Assembly (NCBI GenBank): GCA_963841435.1
Contig: CAWJCS010000003.1
Span: 1,487,365 to 1,551,364, forward strand
Direction: 5' to 3'
From: an uncultured delta proteobacterium
Lineage (GTDB): Bacteria > Myxococcota_A > Polyangia > Polyangiales > Polyangiaceae
DNA: 64,000 bases
Positions 42,369-62,623 of the stretch are shown in pieces (the first letter of the stretch is position 1; each line of letters opens with the position of its first letter). The position numbers and the translations under genes were made by a program. Under the pieces are notes generated by a model that saw only the letters and a list, made by a program, of their open reading frames with translations, did no database searches and had not been told where the DNA came from.

Positions 42369-42399
42369 GTCTAACTTTCGGATCAGGCTGACGAGCTTC
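42369..42399 (+). other. Truncated attC site (R'' and L'' only)
   Basis: GTCTAAC-TTTCG-GATCAGGC-TGACGAGCTTC; right arm missing. Confidence 0.7.
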
Positions 42400-44438: not shown

Positions 44439-44496
44439 GTCCAACTTTCGCATCAAGCTGGCGAGGTTCGCTCGCAGCTTATCCGGGGCGTTGATC
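44439..44496 (+). other. Integron attC site
   Basis: GTCCAAC-TTTCG-CATCAAGC...GCTTATC-CGGGGC-GTTGATC; starts 6 nt after the DUF559 stop. Confidence 0.85.
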
Positions 44497-44533
44497 CTCA
44501 CGACGGCGGACGAATGGCCGCTAGACGCCGAAC

Positions 44534-45035: not shown

Positions 45036-45066
45036 GGTCAAGCTGATGCTTAAACGCTTAAACCGT

Positions 45067-45085
45067 TTATCCGGGGGCGTTGGAA
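45067..45085 (+). other. Degenerate attC right half
   Basis: TTATCCGGGGGC-GTTGGAA matches L'-R' of the other sites. Confidence 0.55.
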
Positions 45086-45275
45086 GGGGCAAGTCTTCGG
45101 AACCCGGGCTCGGGACATGCGCGTCTATCCCTCCGAGCCTGAGCGCCGGCTCTGGCAAGAGCTCCGCGGCGCGCGGCTCGGGGTTGCGTTTCGCAGGCAG
45201 GTCGTCCTCGGAAACGTGTCCGTCCGCCGGACCGCACCCGGTGCGAGGGTTGACGCCGAGGTGTGGCCGGTCGGG

Positions 45276-46923
45276 CTATTCGGCGGCGGAAGGCGGCGCC
45301 GCCGCGCGCGCCACCTGCCACGGCGCCGGCAGCAAATCCCGGCAGATCCTTGAGACGCATACGGCGGGCGAGGCGCGGCAGCACGTCGGCGAGGTACTCG
45401 ACGGGGTCGATCTCGGCGAGCGCCGAGCAGCCGAGGATGGTGTAGGCGATCGCAGCTCGTTCGCCGCCGGCGTCGGAGCCGGCGAAGAGAAAGTTCTTGC
45501 GCGTGAGTGCCGCGCGGACGTGCAGGCGTTCGACGACGCCGTTGTCGATGGGGATCACACCGTCTTCGAGAAACCGACCGAGCGCGACGTGGTGGTTTTG
45601 GAGGTAGCGGATCGCCGTGCCCATCGGCGAGCTCGGTGGTTCGTGCGGTTCGTGGACGTTCGCCCAGGCGACGAGCTCGTCGAAGACCGGCTTGCTCCGT
45701 GCCTGCCGCTCGACGAGCCGGGCCTCCGGCGTCGCGTCCTTCGTCCCCGCCTCGATTTCGTAAAGCTTCTTGTACGCGGCGATCGGCAGCGCCGCGCGCT
45801 TGTCACCGCCGTCGAGCGCCTCGAAGAAGTAGCGGCGAGCGTGCATGTTGCAGCCGCACTCGATGAGCGTCTCGCGCTTGAAGCTCGCATCGAAAACGCC
45901 GGCCGCGTCGGCCACCGTGTAGCCGTTTCGGAGCTTGAGCACGTCTTCCGGCCCAAGCTCACCCTTTTTCTGCCCCGTCTTTTTGCCGGTCGAGGCGTAG
46001 AGGTAGAGCGCCGTCTCTTGGTCGCCCACGTAACCCCAGAGCGTTCCGAGCTTCTTGCCGCCAGGCGCGTCCCGATCGAGCACTGGCAGGCTCGTGCCGT
46101 CCAGGTGCATCACGACCGACATCAAGACGTTCGCGATGGCCGCGCGCCAGAGCGGTCGGAGCAAGTCCGTCGCCCACGTCACCTGGTCGGCGAGCGTCGA
46201 GACGCTGATGTCGAGCCCCATTCTCTCGAAACGCTGCCTCTGACGGTGCAGCGGCAGGCCATCCCAATACTTGTCCACCAAGAGCTGGGCGACGAGTCTC
46301 GCGCCGAGCTTGCCGCCCGAGACGACCTTGTCGCCCGGCGGTGCTCGCACGAGCTCGCCCTCGCACCGCTTGCACGCAAGCTTCTCGCGAGCGTCGCGCC
46401 GCACCACGACCTCTGCCGGGATGAGCTCGATGACTTCCGTCACGTCGTGGCCGATGCACTCCCGCTCGGCTCCGCAGACCGGGCAGGGTCGCTCGGCGTC
46501 GGGCACGCGGAGCAGGTTCTCGATACGTCGCAGCTCCGGCGGCGGCGCCTTCCGCAGCGGCGGCTGCTTCTTGGGCTCCTTCGTTTCCTTCGTCTCCGGG
46601 TCCTCCTTTGCCCCGTCGTCGATGCCGGCAGCACTGCGGAGCCTTCGGTTCGCTTCGTCCCGCTCCTCGTCCGTCCCGCTCTCGCTCTCCGCCGCCGTAG
46701 CGAGTGCGTCGAGAAACAACAGCAGCTGCGCCTTCGGCACGCTCTCGTTCTTCTTGCGGCGCGACGCGATCTCGGCAAGCCGCTGCTCGAGCTCGCTATT
46801 GCGCGCCACGAGCTTCTCCACCACCGCGAGCACCTCGTCGTTGCGTCCCTCGGAGAGCAGCTCCTTGAGCACGTCGAGCACCGCCCCTCGTCGCTCGCTA
46901 GTGCTCTTCGACGCTCCGGCCAC
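45276..46923 (-). CDS. tnpC: IS66 transposase TnpC; extra C near 3' end
   Basis: Zn-ribbon CPVCG/CKRC, LPLHRQ, HLDGT, CNMHARRYF, IDNGVVER. Confidence 0.93.
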
Positions 46924-46995
46924 CCACGCTTTCTATTTCATCGCGATCGCCAGTGCCAAGCACAATCGCAGGGTGTCACGTGGGATCACGTAGCG

Positions 46996-47376
46996 TCACC
47001 CGGACGCAGATGCCCGAGCGTGCAGCGGCGGCTCCCAGCGCTTCTGCGCGTGCACCACCCGGGCGTCGATGCCCTCGAGCAGCATCGAGAGCTCGTGCAC
47101 GTCGAGCTCCACGCTCTTCGCCTCGCTCGTCATCCTCTTCGCAAACGTGAAACGCCCCTGCTCGAGCCGCTTGTGCACAATCGTGAAGCCGCCGCGAGTC
47201 CACAACAAAAGCTTCACCATCGTGCGCCGTCGGTTCAGAAACACGAAGACGTGCCCGCTCAGCGGGTCGCGCCGCAGCACCTCGCGCACCTCGTTCGACA
47301 AGCCGTCGAATGACTTCCTCAAGTTCACCGGCTCCGTCCCCACGTATACGCGCACCGCGCGCGGCAGAAGCAACAC
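46996..47376 (-). CDS. tnpB: IS66 accessory protein TnpB
   Basis: PVNLRKSFDGL...DPLSGHVFVFLNRRR..KLLLW..GGF..HKRLEQGRF. Confidence 0.95.
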   Translation of the reverse strand: MLLLPRAVRVYVGTEPVNLRKSFDGLSNEVREVLRRDPLSGHVFVFLNRRRTMVKLLLWTRGGFTIVHKRLEQGRFTFAKRMTSEAKSVELDVHELSMLLEGIDARVVHAQKRWEPPLHARASASG

Positions 47377-47380
47377 GGGC

Positions 47381-47716
47381 CTACTGCCTCACCAGCTCGC
47401 CCACGAGCGCCACCACCCACGACGGCGGCACCCGCCCTGGATCCAGCTCGACCGCCACCCCACCCGGCAGACGCACCACGACCGGGTGCTCGGCCCTGGC
47501 GCCAGACTCAATCCGCACCACGGCCGGAACGAGACGCGAGATCGCGCCGTCGACCGACTTTCGTCCGCGCTTCGTCCCCGCTCCGAGCCGACGCTGCCAG
47601 AAATGCAGCCGCTGCGGGTCGATGCCGTGCTCACGTCCGTACGACCGAGCCGATTTCCCGCTCGCCCGCCATCGCGACAAAATCTCTCCTGCCTCGTCCG
47701 CCGTCCAGCGTGCCAT
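47381..47716 (-). CDS. tnpA: IS66 TnpA-like HTH protein
   Basis: WRASGKSARSYGREHGI...LHFWQRRL; first IS66 ORF. Confidence 0.85.
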   Translation of the reverse strand: MARWTADEAGEILSRWRASGKSARSYGREHGIDPQRLHFWQRRLGAGTKRGRKSVDGAISRLVPAVVRIESGARAEHPVVVRLPGGVAVELDPGRVPPSWVVALVGELVRQ

Positions 47717-48051
47717 CGCCGCCGAGTCTGCCGCGCCCAGCCCCGCGCAGGGGCGCCGTCAGAGGGTGCGCTCGGGCGGACGGACACTCGGAAACCGCTA
47801 CGTCGCGGACTTCGCCGCGCCGGCGGTCAAGCTCGTAGTCGAGGCGGACGGCGCGGTGTCGCATGTCGGCGGCGCGCCGCGGAGCCGCGGACGCGCGGCG
47901 CGATCGAGATCTCGGTCGGCTCGGCTACCGGGTCCTCCGTATTCCAGCGGCGCTCGTCATGAAAGACTTCGCAGCAGCCGTCGCCATGGTGCGCCGCGCG
48001 CTGAGCGGGTGCCGACGCTGACGCGCTCCGCGGGGGCGCCGCTCGGATGTC

Positions 48052-48804: not shown

Positions 48805-48818
48805 CGGCGCGAACCATA

Positions 48819-49253: not shown

Positions 49254-49258
49254 GGCCG

Positions 49259-51046
49259 CTAGCACCCGTTCCTTGCCATGCAGTCGTTGATGCAACGCTG
49301 GAAGCCCCAGTTGCCACCGAGGTCCTTGTCCACCTCGAGCTGGTCGGCGCAGTCCTCTCGGATGCACTTCAGCTTCACCGCGCCGCAGTCGGGAGGGGGA
49401 GGAGGCGGCGGAACAGGGCATGCAGTGGGCGCGGGGGCCGGAACCGGCTTGGGCTTCGGCCTGAAGATGTCGCGGATTGCCGCGCGACAGTCCGGACTCA
49501 GCCAACAAGCAATCGCCCCAGCACCAGCGGCCGCGCCCAGGATGGGAAGCACCGGCAAAGGGATTGGCGGGAAGATGATCTGGAGTCCGTCCGGGTCCAG
49601 GAGGTTGACAGGGTCGAGGTTGGCGTAGCCGTAGAGGTTTTCGGCCCGACTGTCGAACCTTATCGGGTCCTTGGCTGTCCACCTTCCGACCAATGAATCA
49701 TAGTCGCGCACCCCAAAACGCGCGAGCCGCGTGTCGCCGTCATAGAGACCGCCTGCAAACCCAAATGGCATCCAATCAAGTCCTGTCCCGCCAAACTCGC
49801 CAAACGTTGACCAACTGGCCTGGTAAGGTACGTCAGCAGAGTCGGCTACGTTGACGACAAACATCGGGGATCCGAACTGATCTGAGAATACCCGGTATAG
49901 TGAACCTTCCCGCAATACACAATCCGGCGTATTCGACTTCGTCGTGTACGCAAACTGCGCGACGAGATTGCCTGCACCATCGAGCTCCGCCGCTGGGTAG
50001 TGCCAGGTCAGGTACACCCACTGCTTCAACAACACCCCATTCTTCTTCTTCCCCACCCGCCGCCCCACCCCATCGACCAAGTACTCCACCAAGTCCCCAT
50101 TCGGGAGCCCCACGCTCAGCAAATTCCCGAGCGCATCGTACTGAAAAAGCCACTCTTGCCCAGTCGAGGAGTCGGTCTTCGTCTCCATCTCCCCATTCGC
50201 CGTGTACGTGAACACCCACGGCCCGTACGAAAGCAACCGGTCCTGGTCGTCGTACGTCCCGGTCCACGTCCCCCTCCCGGCCTTGTACCCCGCCGTCCGA
50301 TTGCCGTTGGCGTCGTACTCGAAGTGCTCGTCGAGCACGCCGTTGATCGTCACGTCCGTCAGCCGTCGCAGCGCGTCGTACGTGTACTGGTACACCTTCG
50401 TCGTGCCGTTGATGACCTCCGTCTTCTGCACGATCCGCCCGAGCTTGTCCCGCTCGACGCCTGCCGCGTCATACGTGATGTCCGCGATCGGCGTCGCGCT
50501 GAACTGCGCCGTCTGCCGCGCGAGCTCGCCAAACGTGTTGTAGCTCAGCGACTCCGTCGTGTTGCCGAGCGCGATGCCGGTGATGAGCCCATTCTGCGCG
50601 CTCCGCGTGAGCCGGAGCGCATTCGCCGCACTGGTCCCGCTGCAGCTCACCGGCGACGCACAGGTGAGCAACTGGTCAGCATCGTACCCGAACACCGTCT
50701 GCGCCGTGCCGCTCGCCCCCGTGACGGTCTCGAGGATTTTCTGGAAGTCGTTGTTGTACTGCCACGCGACGCTCCCTTGGACGTCGCCGCTCCACGTGGT
50801 GCTCGTCGTGAGCATCCCGTCGTAGTCGAAGTGCAGGTTGACGCCGTACGGCCCGAGAATATCGCTCGTCTTGCCCGCGCCGCTCGGGGTGCCGGGCGGG
50901 TAGTACGCGTAGTCCAGCATGCCGCCGGGGATTTGGACGGTGTCGAGGCGGCCGGCGCTGTCGGGCGTCCTGACGATCTGGACGCTGTCGGGGCGGGTTT
51001 CGGTGCGGAGCATGCGGTCGGGGTCGTAAGTGTAGCTCTCTTGATG
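49259..51046 (-). CDS. rhs: Orphan Rhs core + Cys/Pro-rich toxin tip
   Basis: YD repeats, PFGFAGGLYD..RFGVRDYD, DPVNLLDPDGL cleavage motif; first ATG at 51013. Confidence 0.92.
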   Translation of the reverse strand, partial: HQESYTYDPDRMLRTETRPDSVQIVRTPDSAGRLDTVQIPGGMLDYAYYPPGTPSGAGKTSDILGPYGVNLHFDYDGMLTTSTTWSGDVQGSVAWQYNNDFQKILETVTGASGTAQTVFGYDADQLLTCASPVSCSGTSAANALRLTRSAQNGLITGIALGNTTESLSYNTFGELARQTAQFSATPIADITYDAAGVERDKLGRIVQKTEVINGTTKVYQYTYDALRRLTDVTINGVLDEHFEYDANGNRTAGYKAGRGTWTGTYDDQDRLLSYGPWVFTYTANGEMETKTDSSTGQEWLFQYDALGNLLSVGLPNGDLVEYLVDGVGRRVGKKKNGVLLKQWVYLTWHYPAAELDGAGNLVAQFAYTTKSNTPDCVLREGSLYRVFSDQFGSPMFVVNVADSADVPYQASWSTFGEFGGTGLDWMPFGFAGGLYDGDTRLARFGVRDYDSLVGRWTAKDPIRFDSRAENLYGYANLDPVNLLDPDGLQIIFPPIPLPVLPILGAAAGAGAIACWLSPDCRAAIRDIFRPKPKPVPAPAPTACPVPPPPPPPDCGAVKLKCIREDCADQLEVDKDLGGNWGFQRCINDCMARNGC

Positions 51047-51047
51047 C

Positions 51048-51130
51048 CCACGCCCCGTCCGTCCTCGCAGCTTCGCTGCTGCGGGCGGCCGACCCCTCCC
51101 TTACCCGGGCGTTGCCCGGATGGGAGGGGT
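51048..51130. repeat. Conserved double-hairpin element, copy 3
   Basis: ACCCCTCCC-TTAC-CCGGGC-GTT-GCCCGG-AT-GGGAGGGGT; near-identical to 61235-61317. Confidence 0.85.
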
Positions 51131-51233
51131 GAGGTCTTGGCGGGCTGGAAGGGGCGGGGCGAGGCTGCAAGCGTGCGGCGGCCGGAGTTTCCTCCGCTGG
51201 CTGGCGGGTGCCGCGGGCTGTATGATTTCTGAC

Positions 51234-51443
51234 ATGAAGCTTGTGGTCACCCTGGAGCGGGACGAGAACGGAGTGGTCGTTGCCGAGTGTCCCGCCATCC
51301 CCGGTTGCGTCAGCCAGGGCGCCACCGAGGACGAGGCGCTTGCCAACATCCGCGAGGCCGTCGTCGGGTGCCTCGAGGCTCGTGCCGAAGCTGGGATGCC
51401 TTTGACCGTGCGGACTGTCGAGCTGGACGTCGCGGTTGCCTGA
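51234..51443 (+). CDS. hicB: HicB antitoxin (short, antitoxin-first order)
   Basis: MKLVVTLERDENGVVVAECPAIPGCVSQGATEDEALANIREA; TATGAT 7 nt upstream. Confidence 0.92.
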   Translation: MKLVVTLERDENGVVVAECPAIPGCVSQGATEDEALANIREAVVGCLEARAEAGMPLTVRTVELDVAVA

Positions 51444-51660
51444 GCTGCCCGTCGTTTCAGGGCGCGACGCTCGTCGGGCGTTCGAGCGGCTCGGGTGGAC
51501 CTTCAACCGGCAGAAGGGTAGCCACATGATCTTGCTGCGGCCCGGGCACATTGCCTCGCTCTCGATTCCGGACCACCGCGAGCTCGCCGCTGGGACGCTT
51601 CGCAAGCTCATCCGAGCGGCGGGCATCACGGTCGACGACTTCGTCCAGGCGCTCAAGTAG
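51436..51660 (+). CDS. hicA: HicA toxin
   Basis: LPVVSGRDARRAFERLGW..NRQKGSHMIL...SIPDHRELAAGTLRKLI. Confidence 0.92.
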   Translation: MPELPVVSGRDARRAFERLGWTFNRQKGSHMILLRPGHIASLSIPDHRELAAGTLRKLIRAAGITVDDFVQALK

Positions 51661-51687
51661 CGCTCCGCGGCGCGACTCGAGCGCGGC

Positions 51688-51842: not shown

Positions 51843-52220
51843 ATGCTCAAGCACAGCCTCACCGTCAGTCCCGCCCGCCAGCAGCTTCTCGCAGCCCGCG
51901 CGCATGACATGCGGGCCTACGCTTCGGAGCCGGAGCGCCGGCTCTGGCAAGAGCTTCGCGGCGGGCCGCTCGGCGTCGTGTTTCGTCGGCAGGTCGTGCT
52001 CGGGCGCTACGTCGCGGACTTCGCCGCGCCGGCGGTCAAGCTCGTCGTGGAGGTGGACGGCGCCACTCATGCTCGGCGCCAGCGCGCTGATGAGCGCAGG
52101 GACAGGGACCTCGGGCGGCTCGGCTACTCCGTCCTCCGCGTCCCAGCGGCGCTCGTCATGAAGGACATCGTCGCCGCCGTCGCGCTGGTGCGCCGCGCGC
52201 TGGACGAGCTCCGCCGCTGA
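51843..52220 (+). CDS. DUF559 endonuclease
   Basis: EPERRLWQELRG...FRRQVVLGRYVADF...VEVDGATH...DERRDRDL. Confidence 0.9.
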   Translation: MLKHSLTVSPARQQLLAARAHDMRAYASEPERRLWQELRGGPLGVVFRRQVVLGRYVADFAAPAVKLVVEVDGATHARRQRADERRDRDLGRLGYSVLRVPAALVMKDIVAAVALVRRALDELRR

Positions 52221-52226
52221 CGCGCG

Positions 52227-52284
52227 GTCCAACTGTCGGATCAAGCTGACGAGCTTCGCTCGCAGCTTATCCGGGGCGTTGGAT
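52227..52284 (+). other. Integron attC site (58 bp)
   Basis: GTCCAAC (RYYYAAC), 5 nt, GATCAAGC, TGACGAGC-TTC-GCTCGCA, GCTTATC, 6 nt, GTTGGAT (GTTRRRY). Unpaired C and A on the top strand equal extrahelical G and T on the bottom strand. Confidence 0.92.
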
Positions 52285-52312
52285 TGCGGAGGCCGATGCT
52301 TTCGTTATTCCG

Positions 52313-52564
52313 TCAGTCCTCACCAGCGGGCACGTTGCGACCTCTCAATCGAAGCGTCTCTCGTTGTGCGGCAAGAACACTGAGCAGGCTTTGAATTAGG
52401 AGACCGCTTATCGCGACTAGACGCAACGGTCCCGTGAAGACCACCTCACCTCGCATTGCCTCCAGGGCGACAACAAAACATATCCCCCCACACACCAGGT
52501 GGAGAGCGACCTTCGCGACACCAATCACTACCCCCTGGCGACGTGGCACCCCTCCTATAGACAT
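52313..52564 (-). CDS. Putative immunity protein (2 TM)
   Basis: Overlaps the toxin stop; two hydrophobic helices. Confidence 0.6.
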   Translation of the reverse strand: MSIGGVPRRQGVVIGVAKVALHLVCGGICFVVALEAMRGEVVFTGPLRLVAISGLLIQSLLSVLAAQRETLRLRGRNVPAGED

Positions 52565-53030
52565 GATGCAATTGCCGGGTCACACGGCGGCGGTGGAGCC
52601 GGCGGGGTGGGGGGTGGCGGCGGGGGCGGCGCACCACAACCGCTCGCTGGTGCCGGCGCCGGTGTCCGCGGGGGCGGCGGACACAATTCTGTAAGTGCTA
52701 TGAAAAACGCTCCACACGCGACCGTGCAACCGACGGCACAGTATGGGTTTGCACCACAGGGAGCGCAGACCGCGTAGCACTCAGCAACGCCGGCGCCGCC
52801 AATAAGTATGGTGCAGAGGTCCGTCCCAAATGGATCACGCCAGTTGATCGGATCGTTGCGGCTATAAGCATAGAAATTGGTTTCGGCGCTGTTGAAGCGC
52901 GTCGGATCTCTTGCGACCCATCGACCTATTCTTGAATCGTAATCTCTGATCCCGAAACGATCAAGGCGTGTGTCGGCATCATAGGTGCCCCCCGCAAACC
53001 CAAACGGCATCCAATCGAGCCCTGTCCCCG

Positions 53031-54332
53031 CTGAGAGATCCCCTCATCCCCTCACGGAAAAGTTGAGGGTCTAGGAATTTGTGGTGGGGGCGTTGGGTTG
53101 AAGGGGCATGCAGGAACAAGGTCAGCCGCTTTCCCAGCCTCAAGCCGCGCACCGCTTGCGTCGGCAGCCGCCTCGTCCGACGCTTTCGCCTCGATACGTG
53201 CATCAGTTTGTCGAACGACTCATAGGAGACGATTTTCACGCGAAGCGCGTGCTTTCCCTCGCTAACGGCGTGGTGGGTACCATCCACGCCGCCGCGTTGG
53301 CGGTTCACTTTATCGGGGAGGGTTTGGCGCTTGCGGAGGGACTCGACCCAAAGCACGCGATCAAACAGGTCGACCGTTTGCTCAGCAATCCGGCGATTTC
53401 CGTCGAGAGGTTCTTCGCCCGATGGGTGCCGTTCGTCGTTGCCGAGCGGAAAGCGCTCCGGGTAGCGCTGGACTGGACGGAGTTCGATCGCGATGGGCAG
53501 ATCACCATCGCGCTCTACCTGCTGACGAGGCACGGGCGGGCCACCCCGTTGCTCTGGAGGACCGTCAGGAAGAGCGACCTGAAGGAGCGACAGGGGGAAT
53601 ACGAAGATGCTATCGTTGAACAGCTTCACAGTCTTCTCGGCGCCGATGTGCGAGTGACGCTGCTGGCCGATCGAGGCTTTGGCGACCAGGCGCGGTACGA
53701 GCATCTCGACCGGCTCGGCTTCAGCTTCGTCATTCGTTTTCGCGAGAACATCCTGGTTGAGAGCGCCGACGGCGATTCGAAGACCGCCGCAGAATGGGTT
53801 CCGAGCAACGGCCGGCCCAAGCACCTGCGAAAAGCCAGAGTGACTGCTGACCGCGCCAACGTGGGCGCCGTCGTGTGCGTGAAATCGGCCGGAATGGCTC
53901 AGGCCTGGTGCCTCGCCACCAACCGTACCGACCTTTCGGCGACCGAGGTCGTCGAGTTGTACGGCCGCCGCTTCACGATCGAGGAGACGTTCCGCGACCA
54001 GAAAGATCTGCGCTTTGGCATGGGGCTGTCGAGCACGCACATCAAGGACCCGGCACGGCGCGATCGCCTGCTCATGCTCGCAGCCTTTGCACAGGGGCTC
54101 CTCACGCTGCTCGGCGCTGCGAGCGAAGCGTCCGGACTCGATCGCTACTTGAAGGCCAATACTGTCAAAAAGCGCACTCACTCCCTGTTTCGTCAGGGTA
54201 GCTATTACTATGCCGCGCTCCCCAACATGCGCGATGATCGCCTGTTGCCGCTCATGGACGCCTTCGGCAAGATCGTCGCCGAGCATCAGGTCTCGCGCGA
54301 ACTTCTCGGTGTCATATGAGGGGATGCCTCAG
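53031..54332 (+). mobile_element. IS4-family element (1302 bp)
   Basis: 16-bp IR CTGAGAGATCCCCTCA / TGAGGGGATGCCTCAG; 9-bp target duplication CTGTCCCCG (53022-30, 54333-41). Confidence 0.92.
53108..54319 (+). CDS. IS4-family DDE transposase
   Basis: VALDWT, LADRGF, YGRRFTIEETFRDQK (YREK-type motif). Confidence 0.92.
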   Translation: MQEQGQPLSQPQAAHRLRRQPPRPTLSPRYVHQFVERLIGDDFHAKRVLSLANGVVGTIHAAALAVHFIGEGLALAEGLDPKHAIKQVDRLLSNPAISVERFFARWVPFVVAERKALRVALDWTEFDRDGQITIALYLLTRHGRATPLLWRTVRKSDLKERQGEYEDAIVEQLHSLLGADVRVTLLADRGFGDQARYEHLDRLGFSFVIRFRENILVESADGDSKTAAEWVPSNGRPKHLRKARVTADRANVGAVVCVKSAGMAQAWCLATNRTDLSATEVVELYGRRFTIEETFRDQKDLRFGMGLSSTHIKDPARRDRLLMLAAFAQGLLTLLGAASEASGLDRYLKANTVKKRTHSLFRQGSYYYAALPNMRDDRLLPLMDAFGKIVAEHQVSRELLGVI

Positions 54333-55598
54333 CTGTCCCCGTCGCCTCACCAAACGCCGAGTACTCCGCGCCGAACGGCACATCGCTCGAATCGGCAATG
54401 TTCACCACGTACCGCGGCGACCCCAAATGGTCGCTCACCACCCGGTACGTCGCACCCCCACGCACGACGTAATCCGGCAGATTGCTCTTCGCCCCGTACG
54501 CGTACTCCGCCACGACCGCGCCCGCGCCATCGAGCTCCGCCACCGGCTTCAACGCATCCCGGTACACCCACTGCTTCAGAAGCACCCCGTTCTTCTTCTT
54601 CCCGACGCGCCGCCCCATCCCGTCCACCAAATACTCGACGAGGTCGCCATTCGGCAACCCGACAGAGAGCAAATTGCCGAGCGCGTCGTACCCGAACATC
54701 CACTCCTCCCCCGTGGAAGTATCCGTCTTCGTCTCCATCTCCCCATTTGCCGTGTACGTAAACACCCACGGCCCGTAGCTCAACAACCGGTCCTGGTCGT
54801 CGTACGTCCCCGTCCAGGTGCCGCGCCCCGCCTTGTACCCCGCCGTCCTGTTCCCGTTCTGCGTCGTAATCGAAGTGCTCATCGAGCACCCCGTTGATGG
54901 CGACGTCCGTCAGCCGTCGCAGCGCGTCGTACGTGTACTGGTACACCTTCGTGACGCCCAGCACCGTCTCCGTCTTCTGCACGATGCGCCCGAGCTTGTC
55001 GCGCTCGACGCCCGCAGCGTCGTACGTGATGTCCGCGATCGGCGTCGCCGAGTACGCGCTCGTTTGCCGCGCGAGCTCGCCGAAGGTGTTGTAGGAGAGG
55101 GTCTCCGTCGTGTTGCCAAGCGCAATCCCCGTGATGAGCCCATTCTGCGCGCTCCTCGTGAGCCGGAGCGCGTTGGCGGCGCTCGTGCCGCTGCAGCTCA
55201 CCGGCGAAGCACACGTGAGCAACTGGTCGGCGTCGTACCCGAAGACGGTCTGCCCCGTGCCGCTCGCGCCGGTCACCGTCTCCAAAATCTTGTTGAAGTC
55301 GTTGTTGTACTGCCACGCCACCGAGCCCGTGACGTCCCCGCTCCACGTGGTGCTCGTGGTGAGCATCCCGTCGTACGTGAAGTGCAGATTCGTCCCGTAC
55401 GGCCCGAGGACGTCGCTCGTCTTGCCGGCGCCGCTCGGCGTCCCGGGCGGGTAGTACGCGTAGTCCAGCATGCCCCCCGGGATTTGGACGGTGTCGAGGC
55501 GGCCGGCGCTGTCGGGGGTGCGGACGATTTGCACGCCGTCGGGGCGGGTTTCCGTGCGGAGCATGCGGTCGGGGTCGTAAGTGTAGCTCTCTTGATGC

Positions 55599-55727
55599 CC
55601 ACCCCCACGCATGCTCGGGGCGTGCTCGCGTGCTCGGCTTCGCCTGCGCGCGCTGCGCGCGCTCCCTGCGCGTGCGTGCCCCTCCCTTATCCATGCTCGC
55701 CTGCGGCTGCGCGTGGATGGGAGGGGA
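55599..55727. repeat. Conserved hairpin element, copy 4
   Basis: CCCTCCC-TT-ATCCATGC...GCGTGGAT-GGGAGGG; compensatory variant of copy 1. Confidence 0.8.
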
Positions 55728-55873
55728 GGCCTTTCCAACTGCAAGCTCCGGCTGGAACTGCGACGTCGGTGGCCGAAGGGGGTTGAGGTTGCGAGGCTCA
55801 ACACGGACGCAGCGTATCATGACGAACGCTCAACGGCGCGGACGCGGCGAGCCCCGCGTGATAGGCTACCGGC

Positions 55874-56113
55874 ATGCGGAACAGCCAAGCCCTTCTCGAC
55901 GAAGCGCTCAAGCTACCCGACGATGAGCGGGCACTCCTTGCGCTTCGCCTCGCAGAGAGCCTGGCCGGTGCTCCCGAGCCCGAATCCGAGGCGGCCTGGG
56001 CAAAGGAAATCACTCGGCGTATCGAGCGCCTCCGCGACGGGAGCGCTCGCGTTTTGTCGGGCGCCGACGCGATGGCTCTAGCCCGCGCTGAGGTGGCCGC
56101 ACGCCGTGCCTGA
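55874..56113 (+). CDS. Addiction-module antitoxin (TIGR02574-like)
   Basis: LLDEALKLPDDERALLALRLAESL...AAWAKEITRRIE; extended -10 TGaTAGGCT 6 nt upstream. Confidence 0.88.
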   Translation: MRNSQALLDEALKLPDDERALLALRLAESLAGAPEPESEAAWAKEITRRIERLRDGSARVLSGADAMALARAEVAARRA

Positions 56114-56401
56114 CGTCCTCGACGCCGCGAGGCGCGAGATGGCGCACGCCGCGACGCAATACGAGGGGTGGCGCAGGGGGTACGGCCACCGGTTTCTCGA
56201 TGAGGTCCAGGGCGCCTTCGACTCCATCGACCGCTTTCCGTTTCTCGGGAGCCCTTGGCTGCTCGAGGGGGTACCCGAAGGCGTCCGGCGCGTTGTGCTC
56301 CGAGCTTTTCCGTATTCGCTCGTCTACGTGACCGAGCCAAGGTGTCCGTCCGCCGGACCGCACCCGGTGCGAGGGTTGACGCCGAGGTGTGGCCGGTCGG
56401 G

Positions 56402-58048
56402 CTATTCGGCGGCGGAAGGCGGCGCCGCCGCGCGCGCCACCTGCCACGGCGCCGGCAGCAAATCCGGCAGATCCTTGAGACGCATACGGCGGGCGAGGCG
56501 CGGCAGCACGTCGGCGAGGTACTCGACGGGGTCGATCTCGGCGAGCGCCGAGCAGCCGAGGATGGTGTAGGCGATCGCAGCTCGTTCGCCGCCGGCGTCG
56601 GAGCCGGCGAAGAGAAAGTTCTTGCGCGTGAGTGCCGCGCGGACGTGCAGGCGTTCGACGACGCCGTTGTCGATGGGGATCACACCGTCTTCGAGAAACC
56701 GACCGAGCGCGACGTGGTGGTTTTGGAGGTAGCGGATCGCCGTGCCCATCGGCGAGCTCGGTGGTTCGTGCGGTTCGTGGACGTTCGCCCAGGCGACGAG
56801 CTCGTCGAAGACCGGCTTGCTCCGTGCCTGCCGCTCGACGAGCCGGGCCTCCGGCGTCGCGTCCTTCGTCCCCGCCTCGATTTCGTAAAGCTTCTTGTAC
56901 GCGGCGATCGGCAGCGCCGCGCGCTTGTCACCGCCGTCGAGCGCCTCGAAGAAGTAGCGGCGAGCGTGCATGTTGCAGCCGCACTCGATGAGCGTCTCGC
57001 GCTTGAAGCTCGCATCGAAAACGCCGGCCGCGTCGGCCACCGTGTAGCCGTTTCGGAGCTTGAGCACGTCTTCCGGCCCAAGCTCACCCTTTTTCTGCCC
57101 CGTCTTTTTGCCGGTCGAGGCGTAGAGGTAGAGCGCCGTCTCTTGGTCGCCCACGTAACCCCAGAGCGTTCCGAGCTTCTTGCCGCCAGGCGCGTCCCGA
57201 TCGAGCACTGGCAGGCTCGTGCCGTCCAGGTGCATCACGACCGACATCAAGACGTTCGCGATGGCCGCGCGCCAGAGCGGTCGGAGCAAGTCCGTCGCCC
57301 ACGTCACCTGGTCGGCGAGCGTCGAGACGCTGATGTCGAGCCCCATTCTCTCGAAACGCTGCCTCTGACGGTGCAGCGGCAGGCCATCCCAATACTTGTC
57401 CACCAAGAGCTGGGCGACGAGTCTCGCGCCGAGCTTGCCGCCCGAGACGACCTTGTCGCCCGGCGGTGCTCGCACGAGCTCGCCCTCGCACCGCTTGCAC
57501 GCAAGCTTCTCGCGAGCGTCGCGCCGCACCACGACCTCTGCCGGGATGAGCTCGATGACTTCCGTCACGTCGTGGCCGATGCACTCCCGCTCGGCTCCGC
57601 AGACCGGGCAGGGTCGCTCGGCGTCGGGCACGCGGAGCAGGTTCTCGATACGTCGCAGCTCCGGCGGCGGCGCCTTCCGCAGCGGCGGCTGCTTCTTGGG
57701 CTCCTTCGTTTCCTTCGTCTCCGGGTCCTCCTTTGCCCCGTCGTCGATGCCGGCAGCACTGCGGAGCCTTCGGTTCGCTTCGTCCCGCTCCTCGTCCGTC
57801 CCGCTCTCGCTCTCCGCCGCCGTAGCGAGTGCGTCGAGAAACAACAGCAGCTGCGCCTTCGGCACGCTCTCGTTCTTCTTGCGGCGCGACGCGATCTCGG
57901 CAAGCCGCTGCTCGAGCTCGCTATTGCGCGCCACGAGCTTCTCCACCACCGCGAGCACCTCGTCGTTGCGTCCCTCGGAGAGCAGCTCCTTGAGCACGTC
58001 GAGCACCGCCCCTCGTCGCTCGCTAGTGCTCTTCGACGCTCCGGCCAC
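56402..58048 (-). CDS. tnpC: IS66 transposase TnpC (intact, 548 aa)
   Basis: As copy 1. Confidence 0.95.
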   Translation of the reverse strand: MAGASKSTSERRGAVLDVLKELLSEGRNDEVLAVVEKLVARNSELEQRLAEIASRRKKNESVPKAQLLLFLDALATAAESESGTDEERDEANRRLRSAAGIDDGAKEDPETKETKEPKKQPPLRKAPPPELRRIENLLRVPDAERPCPVCGAERECIGHDVTEVIELIPAEVVVRRDAREKLACKRCEGELVRAPPGDKVVSGGKLGARLVAQLLVDKYWDGLPLHRQRQRFERMGLDISVSTLADQVTWATDLLRPLWRAAIANVLMSVVMHLDGTSLPVLDRDAPGGKKLGTLWGYVGDQETALYLYASTGKKTGQKKGELGPEDVLKLRNGYTVADAAGVFDASFKRETLIECGCNMHARRYFFEALDGGDKRAALPIAAYKKLYEIEAGTKDATPEARLVERQARSKPVFDELVAWANVHEPHEPPSSPMGTAIRYLQNHHVALGRFLEDGVIPIDNGVVERLHVRAALTRKNFLFAGSDAGGERAAIAYTILGCSALAEIDPVEYLADVLPRLARRMRLKDLPDLLPAPWQVARAAAPPSAAE

Positions 58049-58120
58049 CCACGCTTTCTATTTCATCGCGATCGCCAGTGCCAAGCACAATCGCAGGGTG
58101 TCACGTGGGATCACGTAGCG

Positions 58121-58501
58121 TCACCCGGACGCAGATGCCCGAGCGTGCAGCGGCGGCTCCCAGCGCTTCTGCGCGTGCACCACCCGGGCGTCGATGCCCT
58201 CGAGCAGCATCGAGAGCTCGTGCACGTCGAGCTCCACGCTCTTCGCCTCGCTCGTCATCCTCTTCGCAAACGTGAAACGCCCCTGCTCGAGCCGCTTGTG
58301 CACAATCGTGAAGCCGCCGCGAGTCCACAACAAAAGCTTCACCATCGTGCGCCGTCGGTTCAGAAACACGAAGACGTGCCCGCTCAGCGGGTCGCGCCGC
58401 AGCACCTCGCGCACCTCGTTCGACAAGCCGTCGAATGACTTCCTCAAGTTCACCGGCTCCGTCCCCACGTATACGCGCACCGCGCGCGGCAGAAGCAACA
58501 C
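58121..58501 (-). CDS. tnpB: IS66 accessory protein TnpB
   Basis: Identical protein to copy 1. Confidence 0.95.
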   Translation of the reverse strand: MLLLPRAVRVYVGTEPVNLRKSFDGLSNEVREVLRRDPLSGHVFVFLNRRRTMVKLLLWTRGGFTIVHKRLEQGRFTFAKRMTSEAKSVELDVHELSMLLEGIDARVVHAQKRWEPPLHARASASG

Positions 58502-58505
58502 GGGC

Positions 58506-58841
58506 CTACTGCCTCACCAGCTCGCCCACGAGCGCCACCACCCACGACGGCGGCACCCGCCCTGGATCCAGCTCGACCGCCACCCCACCCGGCAGACGCA
58601 CCACGACCGGGTGCTCGGCCCTGGCGCCAGACTCGATCCGCACCACGGCCGGAACGAGACGCGAGATCGCGCCGTCAACCGACTTTCGTCCGCGCTTCGT
58701 CCCCGCTCCGAGCCGACGCTGCCAGAAATGCAGCCGCTGCGGGTCGATGCCGTGCTCACGTCCGTACGACCGAGCCGATTTCCCGCTCGCCCGCCATCGC
58801 GACAAAATCTCTCCTGCCTCGTCCGCCGTCCAGCGTGCCAT
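58506..58841 (-). CDS. tnpA: IS66 TnpA-like protein
   Basis: Identical protein to copy 1. Confidence 0.85.
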   Translation of the reverse strand: MARWTADEAGEILSRWRASGKSARSYGREHGIDPQRLHFWQRRLGAGTKRGRKSVDGAISRLVPAVVRIESGARAEHPVVVRLPGGVAVELDPGRVPPSWVVALVGELVRQ

Positions 58842-59030
58842 CGCCGCCGAGTCTGCCGCGCCCAGCCCCGCGCAGGGGCGCCGTCAGAGGGTGCGCTCGG
58901 GCGGACGGACACGAGCCAAGATCCACGGTCGTCGCCATCGTGCATGCGAGCATGAGTCCAACCTACTGGATCGACCGGCTCGATGAGACCAAGTAGCGCC
59001 GCCCTCGACGGGCTCCGACGCTGACGCCCG

Positions 59031-59092
59031 GTCCAACTGTCGCTTGCAGCGGACGGGCGCGGACGCCCGCAGCTGAAGCGGGGGCGTTGGTC
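59031..59092 (+). other. Integron attC site (divergent sequence, same fold)
   Basis: GTCCAAC-TGT-CGCTT(G)CAGCGG(A)CGGGCG-CGGA-CGCCCGCAGCTGAAGCG-GGGGC-GTTGGTC. Confidence 0.88.
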
Positions 59093-59480
59093 AATCCGCC
59101 GACGGATAAATGCTCAGAGCCAGGTCAATCCCGCAATGACTCAAGACCCCTAGCAGTTGTGGTGAGAGCCGAAGTGTCCGACTTCCCAAGCCCTTGGCAT
59201 CCACCATCACCGCAATATCAAGTTCGGCGGCGGCCCCAGCCGCGACGATCTGGCGAAGATGCTCCGCAATGGAACCAAGATTCCTGGTTGCCTCTTCGAC
59301 AAGTTGGTTCGCTCCGCTGGTTTCAGCGACCAACAGGTTGAAGCCTGGTTCCTTGGGCACTGGTCCATGCCTTCGGGGTTCGCCAGCTCGCCACTGCCGG
59401 AGCAGGCGGTCGCGTGGAAGCCACGGCATCTGATCGGCTTCAATAGAAGGCCCTTGGATCCTCAGAACGGCGGTTAGCAA
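59091..59480 (-). CDS. Putative immunity protein (DUF4279-like)
   Basis: WRAGEPRR...GFNLLV...ELDIAV...LSHCGIDLALSIY; stop codon overlaps attC R'. Confidence 0.7.
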   Translation of the reverse strand: MLTAVLRIQGPSIEADQMPWLPRDRLLRQWRAGEPRRHGPVPKEPGFNLLVAETSGANQLVEEATRNLGSIAEHLRQIVAAGAAAELDIAVMVDAKGLGSRTLRLSPQLLGVLSHCGIDLALSIYPSAD

Positions 59481-59496
59481 GACTTACGTAGCCCCC

Positions 59497-61233
59497 TTAG
59501 ATGCACTGATTTTGTTCGGGGACGCAATAATCGGGAAGCACGGAACACGGGTCGAGAAGGAATGGGAAGGGAATGATCCAGTCCAGATCGTCCCAGTCGT
59601 CTCCGCCTCGGTCACGCGTGTTATCGGGACCTGGTTCTCCCTCATCCTTCCATTGCTCATGCAAGTCTCTCGCCTCTTCGTGGGTGAGGTCTGCGTCGCC
59701 GGGTTGCTTGATGTTCCGATGATACCAATTCCAAAACTTTTTGGCCAATCCAAAGAGCTTGTCCTTGGGCGACAGGCCATCTTGGTCGGCCCTGTTGATG
59801 GGATCGTTGGCAGCATATGCGTAAAGATCAATGCCACCCGCGAAGAGGATTGCGTCTTTCGCCGTCCACCTACTCGTGAAAGCGTCGTAGTCCCTTGCCC
59901 CGAACCTCGTCAGCCCGGAGTCTACGTCGTAGCCACCACCGGCAAACCCGAACGGCATCCAATCAAGGCCGGTCCCAGTGAGTTCTCCGAAGCTCGAGTA
60001 GTCCGCCCGGTAGGGAACGTCAGCCGAGTTGGTCACGTTCACCACGTAGCGCGGTGATCCAAGTTGGTCGGAGACCACCCGATAAATCGCACCGCCTCGC
60101 GACACATAGTCGGGCGCATTGCGCTTCGCCCCGTACGCAAACTGCGCCACCAGGTTCCCGCTCCCATCGAGCTCCGCCACCGGCTTGAGCGCATCCCGGT
60201 ACACCCACTGCTTCAACAGCACCCCATTCTTCTTCTTCCCGACCCTGCGGCCCATCCCGTCGACGAGGTACTCCACCAAATCCCCATTCGGCAGCCCCAC
60301 GCTCAGCAAATTCCCGAGCGCATCGTACCCGAACATCCACTCCTCCCCCGTGGACGTATCCGTCTTCGTCTCCATCTCCCCATTTGCCGTGTACGTAAAC
60401 ACCCACGGCCCGTAGCTCAGCAACCGGTCCTGGTCGTCGTACGACCCCGTCCAAGTCCCGCGCCCCGCCTTGTACCCCGCCGTCCTGTTCCCGTTCTGGT
60501 CGTAGTCGAAGTGCTCGTCGAGCACGCCGTTGATCGTCACGTCCGTGAGGCGCCGGAGCGCGTCGTACGTGTACTGGTGGACCTTCGTGACCCCGTTGAT
60601 CACCTCCGTCTTCTGGGTGATCCGCCCGAGCTTGTCCCGCTCGAAGCCGGCTTCGTCGTAGGTGAAGTCGGCGAGCGGCGTCGCCGAGTACTGAGCCGTC
60701 TGCTGCGCGAGCTCGCCGAAGGTGTTGTAGCTCAGCGTCTCCGTCGTGTTGCCCAGGGCGATCCCTGTGATGAGCCCATTCTGCGCGCTCCGCGTGAGCC
60801 GGAGCGCGCTCGTCGCGGACGTGCCTGCGCAGCTCACCGGCGAAGCGCACGTGAGCAATTGGTCAGCATCGTACCCGAACACCGTCTGCGCCGTGCCGCT
60901 CGCCCCCGTGACGGTCTCGAGGATTTTCTGGAAGTCGTTGTTGTACTGCCACGCGACGGAGCCCGTGACGTTGCCGCTCCACGTCGTCTGCGTCGTGAGC
61001 ATGCCGTCGTACGTGAAGTGGAGATTCGTGCCGTACGGGCCCAGGATGTCGCTCGTCTTGCCCGCCCCGCTCGGGGTGCCGGGCGGGTAGTACTCGTAGT
61101 CCAGCATGCCGCCGGGGATTTGGACGGTGTCGAGACGTCCGGCGCTGTCGGGCGTGCGGACGATTCCGACGCCGTCGGGGCGGGTTTCGGTGCGGAGCAT
61201 GCGGTCGGGGTCGTAAGTGTAGCTCTCTTGATG
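59497..61233 (-). CDS. rhs: Orphan Rhs core + toxin tip
   Basis: YD repeats; DPINRADQDGL then SPKDKLFGLAKKFWNWYHR...; first ATG at 61200. Confidence 0.92.
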   Translation of the reverse strand, partial: HQESYTYDPDRMLRTETRPDGVGIVRTPDSAGRLDTVQIPGGMLDYEYYPPGTPSGAGKTSDILGPYGTNLHFTYDGMLTTQTTWSGNVTGSVAWQYNNDFQKILETVTGASGTAQTVFGYDADQLLTCASPVSCAGTSATSALRLTRSAQNGLITGIALGNTTETLSYNTFGELAQQTAQYSATPLADFTYDEAGFERDKLGRITQKTEVINGVTKVHQYTYDALRRLTDVTINGVLDEHFDYDQNGNRTAGYKAGRGTWTGSYDDQDRLLSYGPWVFTYTANGEMETKTDTSTGEEWMFGYDALGNLLSVGLPNGDLVEYLVDGMGRRVGKKKNGVLLKQWVYRDALKPVAELDGSGNLVAQFAYGAKRNAPDYVSRGGAIYRVVSDQLGSPRYVVNVTNSADVPYRADYSSFGELTGTGLDWMPFGFAGGGYDVDSGLTRFGARDYDAFTSRWTAKDAILFAGGIDLYAYAANDPINRADQDGLSPKDKLFGLAKKFWNWYHRNIKQPGDADLTHEEARDLHEQWKDEGEPGPDNTRDRGGDDWDDLDWIIPFPFLLDPCSVLPDYCVPEQNQCI

Positions 61234-61234
61234 C

Positions 61235-61317
61235 CCACGCCCCGTCCGTCCTCGCACCTGCGGTGCTGCGGGCGGCCGACCCCTCCCTTACCCGGGCTTT
61301 GCCCGGATGGGAGGGGT
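61235..61317. repeat. Conserved double-hairpin element, copy 5
   Basis: Near-identical to 51048-51130. Confidence 0.85.
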
Positions 61318-61356
61318 GGTTATGGCGAGCTGGAAGGGTCGGGCGGGGGCGGGTAG

Positions 61357-61671
61357 TCAGGCCGCATCCCGGAGCCATTCGAGGATGGCCTCGCGCAGGG
61401 CTGCGTGCAGGCTGAGGCCCCTGCGGCGCGCACGGGTCTCGAGCTTCTTCCAGATGGCCGGAGGGAACCGCACCGACCGCGGCTCCGTGCCACCGACCTC
61501 CTGAAGTCGCTTGGGCCGCCCCCGTCCGACCTGCACCACGATGCCCTCGCGTGCGATGCGTTTGGCGTACGGGTTACGGCGAACGCGCCCCTTGGAGAAG
61601 TCCACCTCGGGGATCTCCTCGAGCGAAGCCTTCGACGGCTCGCGGTGCCTATGCTTGCTTGCCTTCTTCAT
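61357..61671 (-). CDS. BrnA-like antitoxin with C-terminal RHH
   Basis: MKKASK...EIPEVDFSKGRVRRNPYA...RGRPK...RSVRFP..IWKKL; overlaps the brnT end. Confidence 0.8.
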   Translation of the reverse strand: MKKASKHRHREPSKASLEEIPEVDFSKGRVRRNPYAKRIAREGIVVQVGRGRPKRLQEVGGTEPRSVRFPPAIWKKLETRARRRGLSLHAALREAILEWLRDAA

Positions 61672-61924
61672 ACCGTCTCCTCTCTGTACGGGTTGCGAGG
61701 CGGGCGCTGATGATGCGCAGCTCGTCCGGGCTGCGCTCCGCAAAAACAACGACCAAGAGCCTTCCTCCAGCAGACTCGCCGAGGATCAGGGCCCGCTCCG
61801 CGTGCACTCGGTCGTTGACCACTTCAGCCAAGGCGTCGGCGAACACCGTCGCCGCCTCGGAAAACGTCACGCCGTGCTTGCTCTCATTCGAACGAGCCTT
61901 GCGGGGGTCCCAGCTGAACCGCAC
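61649..61924 (-). CDS. brnT: BrnT ribonuclease toxin
   Basis: MRFSWDPRKARSNESKHGVTFSEAATVF...RIISARLATRTERRRYE. Confidence 0.95.
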   Translation of the reverse strand: MRFSWDPRKARSNESKHGVTFSEAATVFADALAEVVNDRVHAERALILGESAGGRLLVVVFAERSPDELRIISARLATRTERRRYEEGKQA

Positions 61925-61929
61925 CTGAT

Positions 61930-61960
61930 AAGTGTATTACACTTGCAAAGGCAACGGCAA
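61930..61960 (-). promoter_or_regulatory. brnTA promoter and palindromic operator
   Basis: Perfect IR AAGTGTA-T-TACACTT (61930-44) covers -10 TACACT, 6 nt before the GTG; TTGCCG 18 bp upstream. Confidence 0.75.
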
Positions 61961-61999
61961 GGACGCCCTCGCGAGCCGCCGAGACGCTTGCGCAACCTG

Positions 62000-62154
62000 G
62001 CCCTCGCGCCCGGGCTGGTCTCGGGCTCCGCAGGATCGCGCAACCGGCGCGCCGCGCTTCTGCTCAGCACGGCGCCTCCTCGCTCCTCGCGCGTCACGCC
62101 GCTTGCGCCGGTGAGGCTGCGCCCGAGCCCATCCCGGGCGCGAGGAGAACCTCC
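62000..62154 (+). repeat. Conserved structured DUF559 leader, copy 3
   Basis: CCTCGCGCCCGGG...CCCGGGCGCGAGG outer stem. Confidence 0.8.
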
Positions 62155-62535
62155 ATGCTCAAGCCTCACCTCACCGTCAGCCCTTCCCGCCAGCAGCTAC
62201 TCGCGGCCCGCGCGCATGACATGCGCGTTTACGCCTCGGAGCCGGAGCGCCGGCTCTGGCAAGCGCTTCGCGGCGGGCGGCTCGGCATCGTGTTCCGCCG
62301 GCAGGTCGTGCTCGGGCAGCGTTACGTCGCGGACTTCGCAGCGCCGGCGGTCAAGCTCGTCGTGGAGGTGGACGGCGCCACTCATGCTCGGCGCCAGCGC
62401 GCTGATGAGCGCAGGGACAGGGACCTCGGGCGGCTCGGGTACCGCGTGCTCCGCGTCCCGGCGTCGCTCGTCATGAAGGACATCGCGGCGGTGGTCGCTC
62501 TGGTGCGGAGCGCGCTGGACGAGCTCCGACGCTGA
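62155..62535 (+). CDS. DUF559 endonuclease
   Basis: Near-identical to 51843..52220. Confidence 0.9.
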   Translation: MLKPHLTVSPSRQQLLAARAHDMRVYASEPERRLWQALRGGRLGIVFRRQVVLGQRYVADFAAPAVKLVVEVDGATHARRQRADERRDRDLGRLGYRVLRVPASLVMKDIAAVVALVRSALDELRR

Positions 62536-62541
62536 CGCGCG

Positions 62542-62600
62542 GTCCAACTGTCGGATCAAGCTGGCGAGCTTTGCTCGCAGCTTATCCGGGGGCGTTGGAT
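62542..62600 (+). other. Integron attC site
   Basis: GTCCAAC-TGTCG-GATCAAGC...GCTTATC-CGGGGGC-GTTGGAT. Confidence 0.9.
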
Positions 62601-62623
62601 GACCTCGTTGCACGTGGCGCTGG

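Follow-up and report, generated by a model that had tools for sequence, protein, structure and literature searches.

Does the presence of integron recombination sites (attC) along an array of toxin modules mean that an integron integrase put those modules in place? The question is raised by the end of one contig, C3, in the genome of an uncultured, soil-type member of the Polyangiaceae (7.78 Mb, 69% G+C, six contigs, 95% complete), from which we analysed a stretch of 64 kb (G000:C3:1487365-1551364, hereafter the window) that reaches the very end of this contig. From about 42 kb to the window end, the minus strand is occupied by an Rhs orphan array, with DUF559 genes between the modules on the plus strand, and four hairpins, named here by their start positions 44439, 52227, 59031, and 62542, are directly repeated on that plus strand. 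Judged by sequence and structure models, the four hairpins are genuine attC sites and share their attC family with the sites of the integron that this genome carries. We consider it probable that they form a set resembling groups of attC sites that have no integron integrase (CALIN), that this set is idle, and that the toxin modules among the sites were placed by Rhs-type homologous recombination and not by an integrase.

The original prediction had assigned to these hairpins the boxes and the bulged fold of aadA-type attC sites, and both our box inspection and our folding of the bottom strand agree with it. The R'' box reads GTCCAAC in 4/4 sites, which fits RYYYAAC; the R' box is a full GTTRRRY in two of the four (52227 and 62542) and carries one mismatch in 44439 and 59031, and the spacer between R'' and L'' is 5 nt long. 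Folded as bottom-strand DNA, 52227 reaches -18.9 kcal/mol (z -5.2, 0/200 shuffles as good) and 62542 takes the same shape at -18.4 kcal/mol (z -4.6, 0/200 shuffles). Both begin with a 6-bp R stem and an unpaired loop of 4-5/3 nt; a bulged G then separates a 5-bp stem from a 6-bp stem, and a bulged T separates the latter from the terminal stem-loop, the two single-base bulges lying on the 3' arm of the fold. Site 59031, for which a different stem with the same fold had been claimed, does adopt the shape of 52227 with other stem letters (-19.6 kcal/mol, z -2.3, 2/200 shuffles). The fold of 44439 is weaker (-11.9 kcal/mol, z -1.6, 13/200 shuffles): its L stem and bulges are kept, and its R box pairs over only 4 bp.

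The surroundings of the sites are equally regular. The similarity between repeat units, said to stop just after G|TT, breaks off 1-4 nt past GTT. Three sites (44439, 52227, and 62542) begin 6 nt behind the stop codon of a DUF559 gene, and upstream of 59031 a non-DUF559 open reading frame (ORF) of the same strand ends at a distance of 44 nt. Two remnants accompany the four sites: a left half-site, in which similarity breaks in the loop and no fold is obtained (z +1.5), and a degenerate copy at 45036-45085 that was read from the sequence and detected by neither of the two covariance models described below. A 5' flank of about 18 nt (CCGACGCTGACGCsCGG) is common to all five window sites, even behind unrelated ORFs.

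It is important to note that boxes and a hairpin are by themselves weak evidence. When the genome was scanned for RYYYAAC followed by GTTRRRY, the R box being required to pair in the fold of minimum energy, 75 sites came up, and the reversed genome, in which composition and inverted repeats are kept, gave 74; consensus boxes with a paired R box were consequently rejected as evidence of attC. Two covariance models, R1 and R2, were built here as substitutes for the attC model of IntegronFinder. R1 was made from six of the sites on contig C1 that adjoin the genome's own integrase gene (intI), contains no window site, and was run with filters off. Within the window, it places the four hairpins at ranks 1-4 of 78 matches, all of the four on the plus strand: 59031 with 36.0 bits (E 4.1e-8), 52227 with 35.5 bits (E 6e-8), 62542 with 29.6 bits (E 3.5e-6), and 44439 with 18.1 bits (E 0.0098), followed at rank 5 by a match of 15.9 bits (E 0.045). 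Across the genome, the same model found 11 more sites where contig C5 ends, their strand being the one in which the C1 array would carry on, plus a few scattered ones.

An alignment of 24 sites of this genome, fitted to the model and to that extent favouring the structure, has 91.4% of its cells paired in the shared structure, where shuffles reach 77.1 +/- 1.0 (0/500 as high) and slid partners 26-43%; changes on both sides occur in 16/29 pairs, and AAC/GTT are invariant (22/22). R2, a wider model built on these 24 sites, of which the window supplied three, was applied to a Klebsiella plasmid with a class 1 integron, where it recovered 6/6 expected attC sites, each just 3' of an annotated cassette gene (E 1e-6 to 0.007), with no other match below E 0.7. 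With R2, the weakest window site, 44439, scores 31.4 bits.

The window sites align colinearly with the attC sites of the class 1 cassettes aadA1, aadA2, and qacL, with the same spacing and bulge positions and a length of 58-62 nt against 60. Shared with them are R'' GTCyAAC, the 5-nt spacer, a short stem, a bulged C, a 6-bp stem, a bulged A, a terminal stem-loop, and R' GTTrrry, as well as the words TCAAGCyGAC and GCTTA, the position directly 3' of an ORF of the same strand, and detection by the same covariance model. It is from the R1 ranking, the decisive test, together with the recovery of class 1 sites by R2 and this alignment, that we conclude attC identity. Unlike class 1 cassettes, the window sites have the common 5' flank and distal R' bases that do not complement the neighbouring R'', no integrase or attI is nearby, and neighbouring sites are 3.5-7.8 kb apart. 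In searches for closer relatives of the site, the pattern CGCTGACGCSCGGTCYAACTNTCG gave 0 matches among the genome contigs, and the pattern GACGCSCGGTCYAACTKTCG gave 2 among metagenome contigs, neither of them followed by a hairpin.

The same results bear on the most ordinary explanation, namely that the hairpins are terminators or repeat hairpins between convergent genes and resemble attC by chance. The sites do lie between convergent genes, the box rule is satisfied as often in the reversed genome, and an Rfam search returned 0 matches at gathering score. On the other side stand the R1 ranks and E values (4e-8 to 0.01) and the strand specificity of the match (59031 scores 50.6 bits on the plus strand and 13.5 bits on the minus strand with R2). 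In addition, no T run follows the hairpin at any of the four sites, and a terminator scan of 44000-63000 listed 10 terminator-like sites against 11.1 expected, none coinciding with an attC site. The hairpin sequence is found nowhere else in the genome. This explanation is already largely refuted, and we hold it to be highly improbable. The attC interpretation in the original prediction is thus upheld by a model built independently of the window, and a hairpin dispersed as an ordinary terminator is not what the genome contains. Counted genome-wide, as that prediction had advised, the hairpin sequence is unique and the box rule no better than chance.

Table 1. Coordinates of the attC sites, neighbouring genes and elements in the window, and of the integron elsewhere in the genome (C1, C5: other contigs).
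Feature	Position	Strand	Details
attC site, aadA-like layout	52227..52284	+	R'' GTCCAAC, R' GTTGGAT
attC site	62542..62600	+	R'' GTCCAAC, R' GTTGGAT
attC site, different stem, same fold	59031..59092	+	R'' GTCCAAC, R' GTTGGTC
attC site, weakest of the four	44439..44496	+	R'' GTCCAAC, R' GTTGATC
Left half-site (R'' GTCTAAC, spacer, L'')	42369..42399	+	89% to 52211-52257
Degenerate attC remnant	45036..45085	+	L'-R' kept (TTATCCGGGGGCGTTGGAA); R'' AAC and spacer lost
DUF559 gene 1	44055..44432	+	PF04480, E 1.5e-23; stop 6 nt before R'' of 44439
DUF559 gene 2	45097..48022	+	split by IS66 (45213-47787); no attC behind stop
DUF559 gene 3	51843..52220	+	E 8.1e-25 for longer frame 51723-52220
DUF559 gene 4	62155..62535	+	E 3e-25
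Rhs orphan (core fragment and C-terminal tip)	49259..51013	-	RHS_repeat, TEN_YD-shell; motif PVNLLDPDGL
Rhs orphan core, broken frames	54286..55820	-	Pfam and self-comparison
Rhs orphan, 586 aa	59497..61257	-	Pfam
Rhs fragment cut by end of C3	63495..64000	-	
Presumed immunity ORF, 83 aa	52313..52564	-	ends 28 nt from R' of 52227; follows Rhs tip 52555-53010
Presumed immunity ORF, 129 aa	59091..59480	-	stop codon overlaps R' of 59031 by 2 nt
Presumed immunity ORF, 277 aa	62624..63457	-	ends 23 nt from R' of 62542
HicB-like ORF	41946-42347	+	precedes left half-site 42369-42399
hicB-like and hicA toxin-antitoxin pair	51120..51660	+	upstream of DUF559 gene 3
Serum-amyloid-A-like ORF, 89 aa	44713..44982	-	Pfam PF00277 (SAA), E 1.3e-23
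IS66 copy 1	45213-47787		splits DUF559 gene 2
IS66 copy 2	56339..58912	-	99.8% identical to copy 1
AAA_21/AbiEii-type ATPase ORF	48052-48876	-	abuts stop of attC-less DUF559 copy
intI frame	C1:7941-8927		TIGR02249, 309.1 bits, cut-off 265
Main attC array	C1:1-7059 and C5:1830082-1845317		at least 18 sites over two contig ends

If the sites are real, the next question is whether an integrase is available to act on them. As had been predicted, the 41 kb before the first site hold no intI; in a whole-genome search with the TIGR02249 profile the window gave no match, the only intI-like frame lying on C1, and the window thus lacks the intI beside an attC array that marks a complete integron. The frame on C1 is itself incomplete. 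Aligned to the solved VchIntIA (2a3v), its residues 94-232 correspond to 15-154 and its residues 227-327 to 217-317, so that a stretch of the catalytic domain, about 62 residues long and numbered 155-216 in VchIntIA, is without a counterpart; the identity to IntI1 is 56%, in two pieces. The missing stretch is one that we take to hold the catalytic lysine and the integron-specific helix. The IntI proteins of relatives span the whole profile (390-463 bits), which makes the deletion particular to this genome. By its sequence, then, the C1 integrase is probably dead, and since it is the sole intI of the assembly, the window sites are probably idle now.

The main array to which this intI belongs has its sites, 75-173 nt long, at a spacing of 0.4-3.7 kb (mostly 0.4-1.8 kb), and its cassettes include PIN, DUF6883, and several IS110-family transposase frames. 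Unlike in class 1 integrons, the gene points towards its own array, presumably the arrangement called 'inverted'. No exact overlaps were found between contig ends, and the C5 end and the C1 start do not abut directly, since an IS110-type frame stands at the former and a DDE_3 frame at the latter. The window sites resemble this array in attC family, 59031 being the closest to the C1 sites, with which it shares yTTGCAGC...CAGCTGAA, and toxin-antitoxin cargo occurs in both (PIN, HicB); the dimensions of the main array and its junctions, to which we return below, are different.

The minus-strand side of the locus has the make-up of an Rhs orphan array: repeated cores, variable tips, small ORFs, and a full-length rhs gene, the last of these on the end of C1. 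Core fragments at 49.7-51.2, 54.3-55.6, 59.9-61.3, and 63.7-64.0 kb are 82-90% alike, and the repeat units share core arms of 1.2-1.5 kb with the same 82-90% identity; behind each core fragment come a variable tip and a small ORF for which Pfam gave no match. The long rhs gene at the end of C1 is 81-90% identical to the orphans over the core parts and is oriented as a main gene would be; we infer that it is the main gene of the array, joined to the end of C3 across a junction that is unassembled. Rhs orphan arrays of this kind reportedly arise by C-terminal displacement, and the window shares with them the cores, tips, small ORFs, and long rhs gene; the antisense DUF559 gene and the attC site at the module edge set its units apart.

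The original prediction had placed an attC site at the edge of each immunity gene, with the toxin and immunity genes as cargo antisense to the array. The orientation is as described, the toxin and presumed immunity genes being on the minus strand and the attC sites on the plus strand, and three attC sites do abut the 3' ends of small ORFs, at the distances listed in Table 1. Our naming of these ORFs as presumed immunity genes follows their position: they gave no Pfam match, and the 277-aa protein has no match in the 382 other genomes of the family. The further suggestion that toxin and immunity genes are themselves the cassette cargo is not demonstrated, and the tests that follow bear on it.

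An integrase that assembles cassettes one after another should leave a trace at the junctions. The bases after GTT derive from the attC of the next cassette and should complement the next R''; we therefore compared the last 4 nt of the R' of each site with the R'' of the following one. In the main array, 12/16 junctions carry this signature, including 6/6 on C1, and most cases are non-trivial; in the window the count is 0/3 (2/4, 3/4, and 3/4 bases). The segments point the same way. From 44439 to 52227 the gap is 7.8 kb and from 52227 to 59031 it is 6.8 kb, the starts of 59031 and 62542 are 3511 nt apart, and the segments without IS66 measure 4.2-5.2 kb; for the main array, as for relatives, the spacing is mostly 0.4-1.8 kb. 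The regions with attC arrays inspected in 11 relatives, 20 in number (208,037 nt, about 73 sites), contain no Rhs fragment and only one DUF559 fragment. The core arms shared by the repeat units likewise count against junctions made by an integrase.

These observations weigh against the idea that the Rhs tip and immunity modules are unusually large true cassettes, captured or shuffled by an integrase, each running from G|TT of one attC to the next (immunity, tip, Rhs core fragment, accessory genes, DUF559, and attC), with homologous recombination through the core fragment then arming the main rhs gene. What speaks for it is the position of R' 0-28 nt from the 3' ends of three presumed immunity genes, the stop of similarity just behind GTT, the direct repetition of the sites in the correct orientation, a cassette-sized unit at the left end (590 nt between 44496 and 45085), the presence of an integron in the genome, and the same layout with a different attC in a relative (G378:C38, see below). 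Against it, besides junctions, relatives, and segment lengths (the largest known cassettes measure about 2 kb according to the excerpted text of PMC4889954), stand the internal deletion of intI, one unit without attC, and an otherwise equal array without attC in the relative G194. We regard this alternative as unlikely.

The unit without attC is that of DUF559 gene 2, which meets a variable module directly, the similarity ending 3 nt before the would-be R''; such a junction is not a product of integrase action. DUF559 genes also occur apart from attC elsewhere. Within this genome, an attC lies within 30 nt behind 4/8 DUF559 places, three in the window and one at C3:9137, where the site is 124 nt long and of different sequence (region C3:8940-9180); a fifth place, C3:3010 (region C3:2850-3060), has a left half-site within about 50 nt, with the same spacer and L'' words. 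Both of these further DUF559 genes are located at the opposite end of contig C3. At the DNA level, DUF559 was found in 81/383 family genomes, often on short contigs, and beside Rhs pieces also in G194, G382, and G378 (two places). The G194 locus (C117:3000-16000) consists of a main rhs gene of 2067 aa followed by three orphan units with an exact period of 1950 nt, each with an antisense DUF559 gene and then a plain hairpin that differs from those of the window; R2 with filters off found no attC in this array, and the pairing of DUF559 with Rhs thus exists without attC. It would seem that the Rhs orphan units of this family regularly include DUF559. A strong attC was nearby at only 1/29 DUF559 loci of relatives (G378:C38), and none adjoined 12 further DUF559 matches in ten larger regions, some loci being repeated among them. 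A search for related loci with DUF559 returned only distant relatives (33-58% identity), mostly alphaproteobacterial, which were not used.

Such an association could also mean that DUF559 and the downstream hairpin are a mobile or recombination-promoting unit of their own, a Vsr-like nuclease with a structured site that settles behind Rhs immunity genes, the hairpin happening to be, or having become, an attC. The multiple copies in the family, the repeated company of Rhs pieces, the different hairpin behind the DUF559 stop in G194, and the attC or half-site behind five of the eight places in this genome would suit it. However, no target duplication or defined left end was seen, the left edges of three repeat units lack a GTT box, 59031 and the half-site at 42369 follow non-DUF559 ORFs, and the nuclease role is putative. 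Nor was a left G|TT edge found that would delimit a 600-bp DUF559 cassette, GTTGGAC/T occurring between 41 and 64 kb only inside two attC sites. We consider such a unit very unlikely.

In the reading that we prefer, homologous recombination that carried attC sites along, the single-stranded bottom strand of an attC would fold into the bulged hairpin, which an integrase would recognise and cut between G and TT of R'. The window sites are the 3' ends of plus-strand ORFs of cassette type, DUF559 three times and another ORF once, and the remnants after the HicB-like ORF and beside the serum-amyloid-A-like cassette belong to the same degraded set. This set, integrase-less and CALIN-like, is interleaved with the Rhs orphan array of the opposite strand. 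The unit that is repeated there, made up of an Rhs core fragment with its tip, an immunity gene, and DUF559 with attC, would have spread or been exchanged by Rhs-type homologous recombination with the attC carried along, the toxin modules not having been inserted one by one by an integrase. If an integrase were provided in trans, the 3.5-kb segment from 59031 to 62542 could even now be excised.

Several observations count against this reading. First, 3/3 fully assembled toxin modules end exactly at R'. Second, the copies differ by 8-15%, so that they could be separate acquisitions and not internal duplications. Third, the R'' boxes of the window do not differ from one another, which leaves the junction test with little power there. 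Fourth, the assembly is 95% complete in six contigs and could lack a further, intact intI. Fifth, the layout recurs in another genus, at G378:C38, around an attC of unrelated sequence (R'' GGCGAAC, R' GTTCGCC); this attC comes after a DUF559 gene, and towards its R' end run an Rhs frame and an ORF of 214 aa. Simple carry-along does not explain this recurrence. The word GTTCGCC is found at locus L126 only in its own attC.

Those who compare this locus with known integron structures should place it near the CALINs. In the excerpted text of Cury et al. (2016, PMC4889954), a CALIN comprises two or more attC sites of the same strand that are separated by less than 4 kb and have no intI among them, its origins are given as integron splitting, loss of intI, or insertion at secondary sites, and half of the CALINs are in replicons that also encode IntI. 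The same-strand attC sites of the window, without intI and with an intI elsewhere in the genome, are like this; unlike it, the 4-kb rule of that text clusters only 59031 and 62542 and leaves the others as single sites, and the content is an Rhs orphan array with IS66 copies in place of short promoterless ORFs. The CALIN-like character that had been proposed is upheld, with the qualifications that only the pair 3511 nt apart falls under the 4-kb rule as stated there and that the genome does contain an intI, internally deleted, on C1.

The array is interleaved with other elements (Table 1), among them a hicB/hicA pair, a HicB-like ORF, and IS66 copies. Between attC 44439 and the remnant at 45036-45085, a segment of 590 nt, the only clear gene is the serum-amyloid-A-like ORF; a homologue of this protein alone in a cassette-sized bacterial segment is odd. 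The AAA_21/AbiEii-type ORF at 48052-48876 occupies the expected position of an immunity gene. Upstream of Rhs orphan starts, at 41436-41471, 43222-43257, and 55685-55720, there is a repeat of 36 nt that contains an inverted repeat (CCTTAATCATGC...GCGTGATTGG). A third IS66 copy is at C3:28-2509, at the start of the contig, and the assembly breaks were probably caused by this element. Within the genus, the two genes that border the array on its left reach only 65-78% identity, and other genomes have them on separate contigs (44/47 genomes matched, a tally that includes one unpublished genome, G261, on which no claim rests), so that there was no orthologous locus to compare. In two soil metagenome runs with small shares (0.09 and 0.06), contigs over 62130-62368 and 62460-62610 are identical to the locus; they contain no joints and so do not bear on excision.

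Since attC sites and CALINs are well known, the identity of the sites is not in itself new, and attC amid Rhs modules is an unusual place and not a new kind of element. What is unusual is where the sites lie: they stand at the edges of polymorphic-toxin modules, do so several times over in one Rhs orphan array, and recur in a second genus; we found no description of attC in Rhs or polymorphic-toxin arrays in a literature judged mostly by titles and abstract openings. In the type VI secretion system arrays of Vibrio cholerae, displaced effector/immunity modules pile up in a manner called reminiscent of integron cassette insertion, and the authors state, in the excerpted text, that there is no evidence of an integrase aiding insertion (Kirchberger et al. 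2017, PMC5361080). Unlike in those arrays as that text presents them, integron sites are here physically at the module edges, their use being unproven, and the locus is a concrete place to test the idea of integron-like insertion for effector-immunity arrays (cf. PMC5361080).

Integrons are common in this large-genome family: 34/151 genomes have an IntI over the cut-off and 62/151 have attC matches. It seems to us quite unlikely that attC was recruited as the outer boundary of Rhs modules, with giant cassettes of 3.5-5 kb, each comprising an immunity gene, a toxin tip, an Rhs homology arm, and a DUF559 gene with its attC, excised and exchanged by an integrase in trans, after which homologous recombination would bring them into the main rhs gene. 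Even so, since the layout recurs in a second genus, there is a real chance, and one open to testing, that attC has a role in toxin-module exchange. If giant cassettes of this kind are indeed exchanged, they would constitute a two-step route, site-specific and then homologous recombination, for the diversification of toxins.

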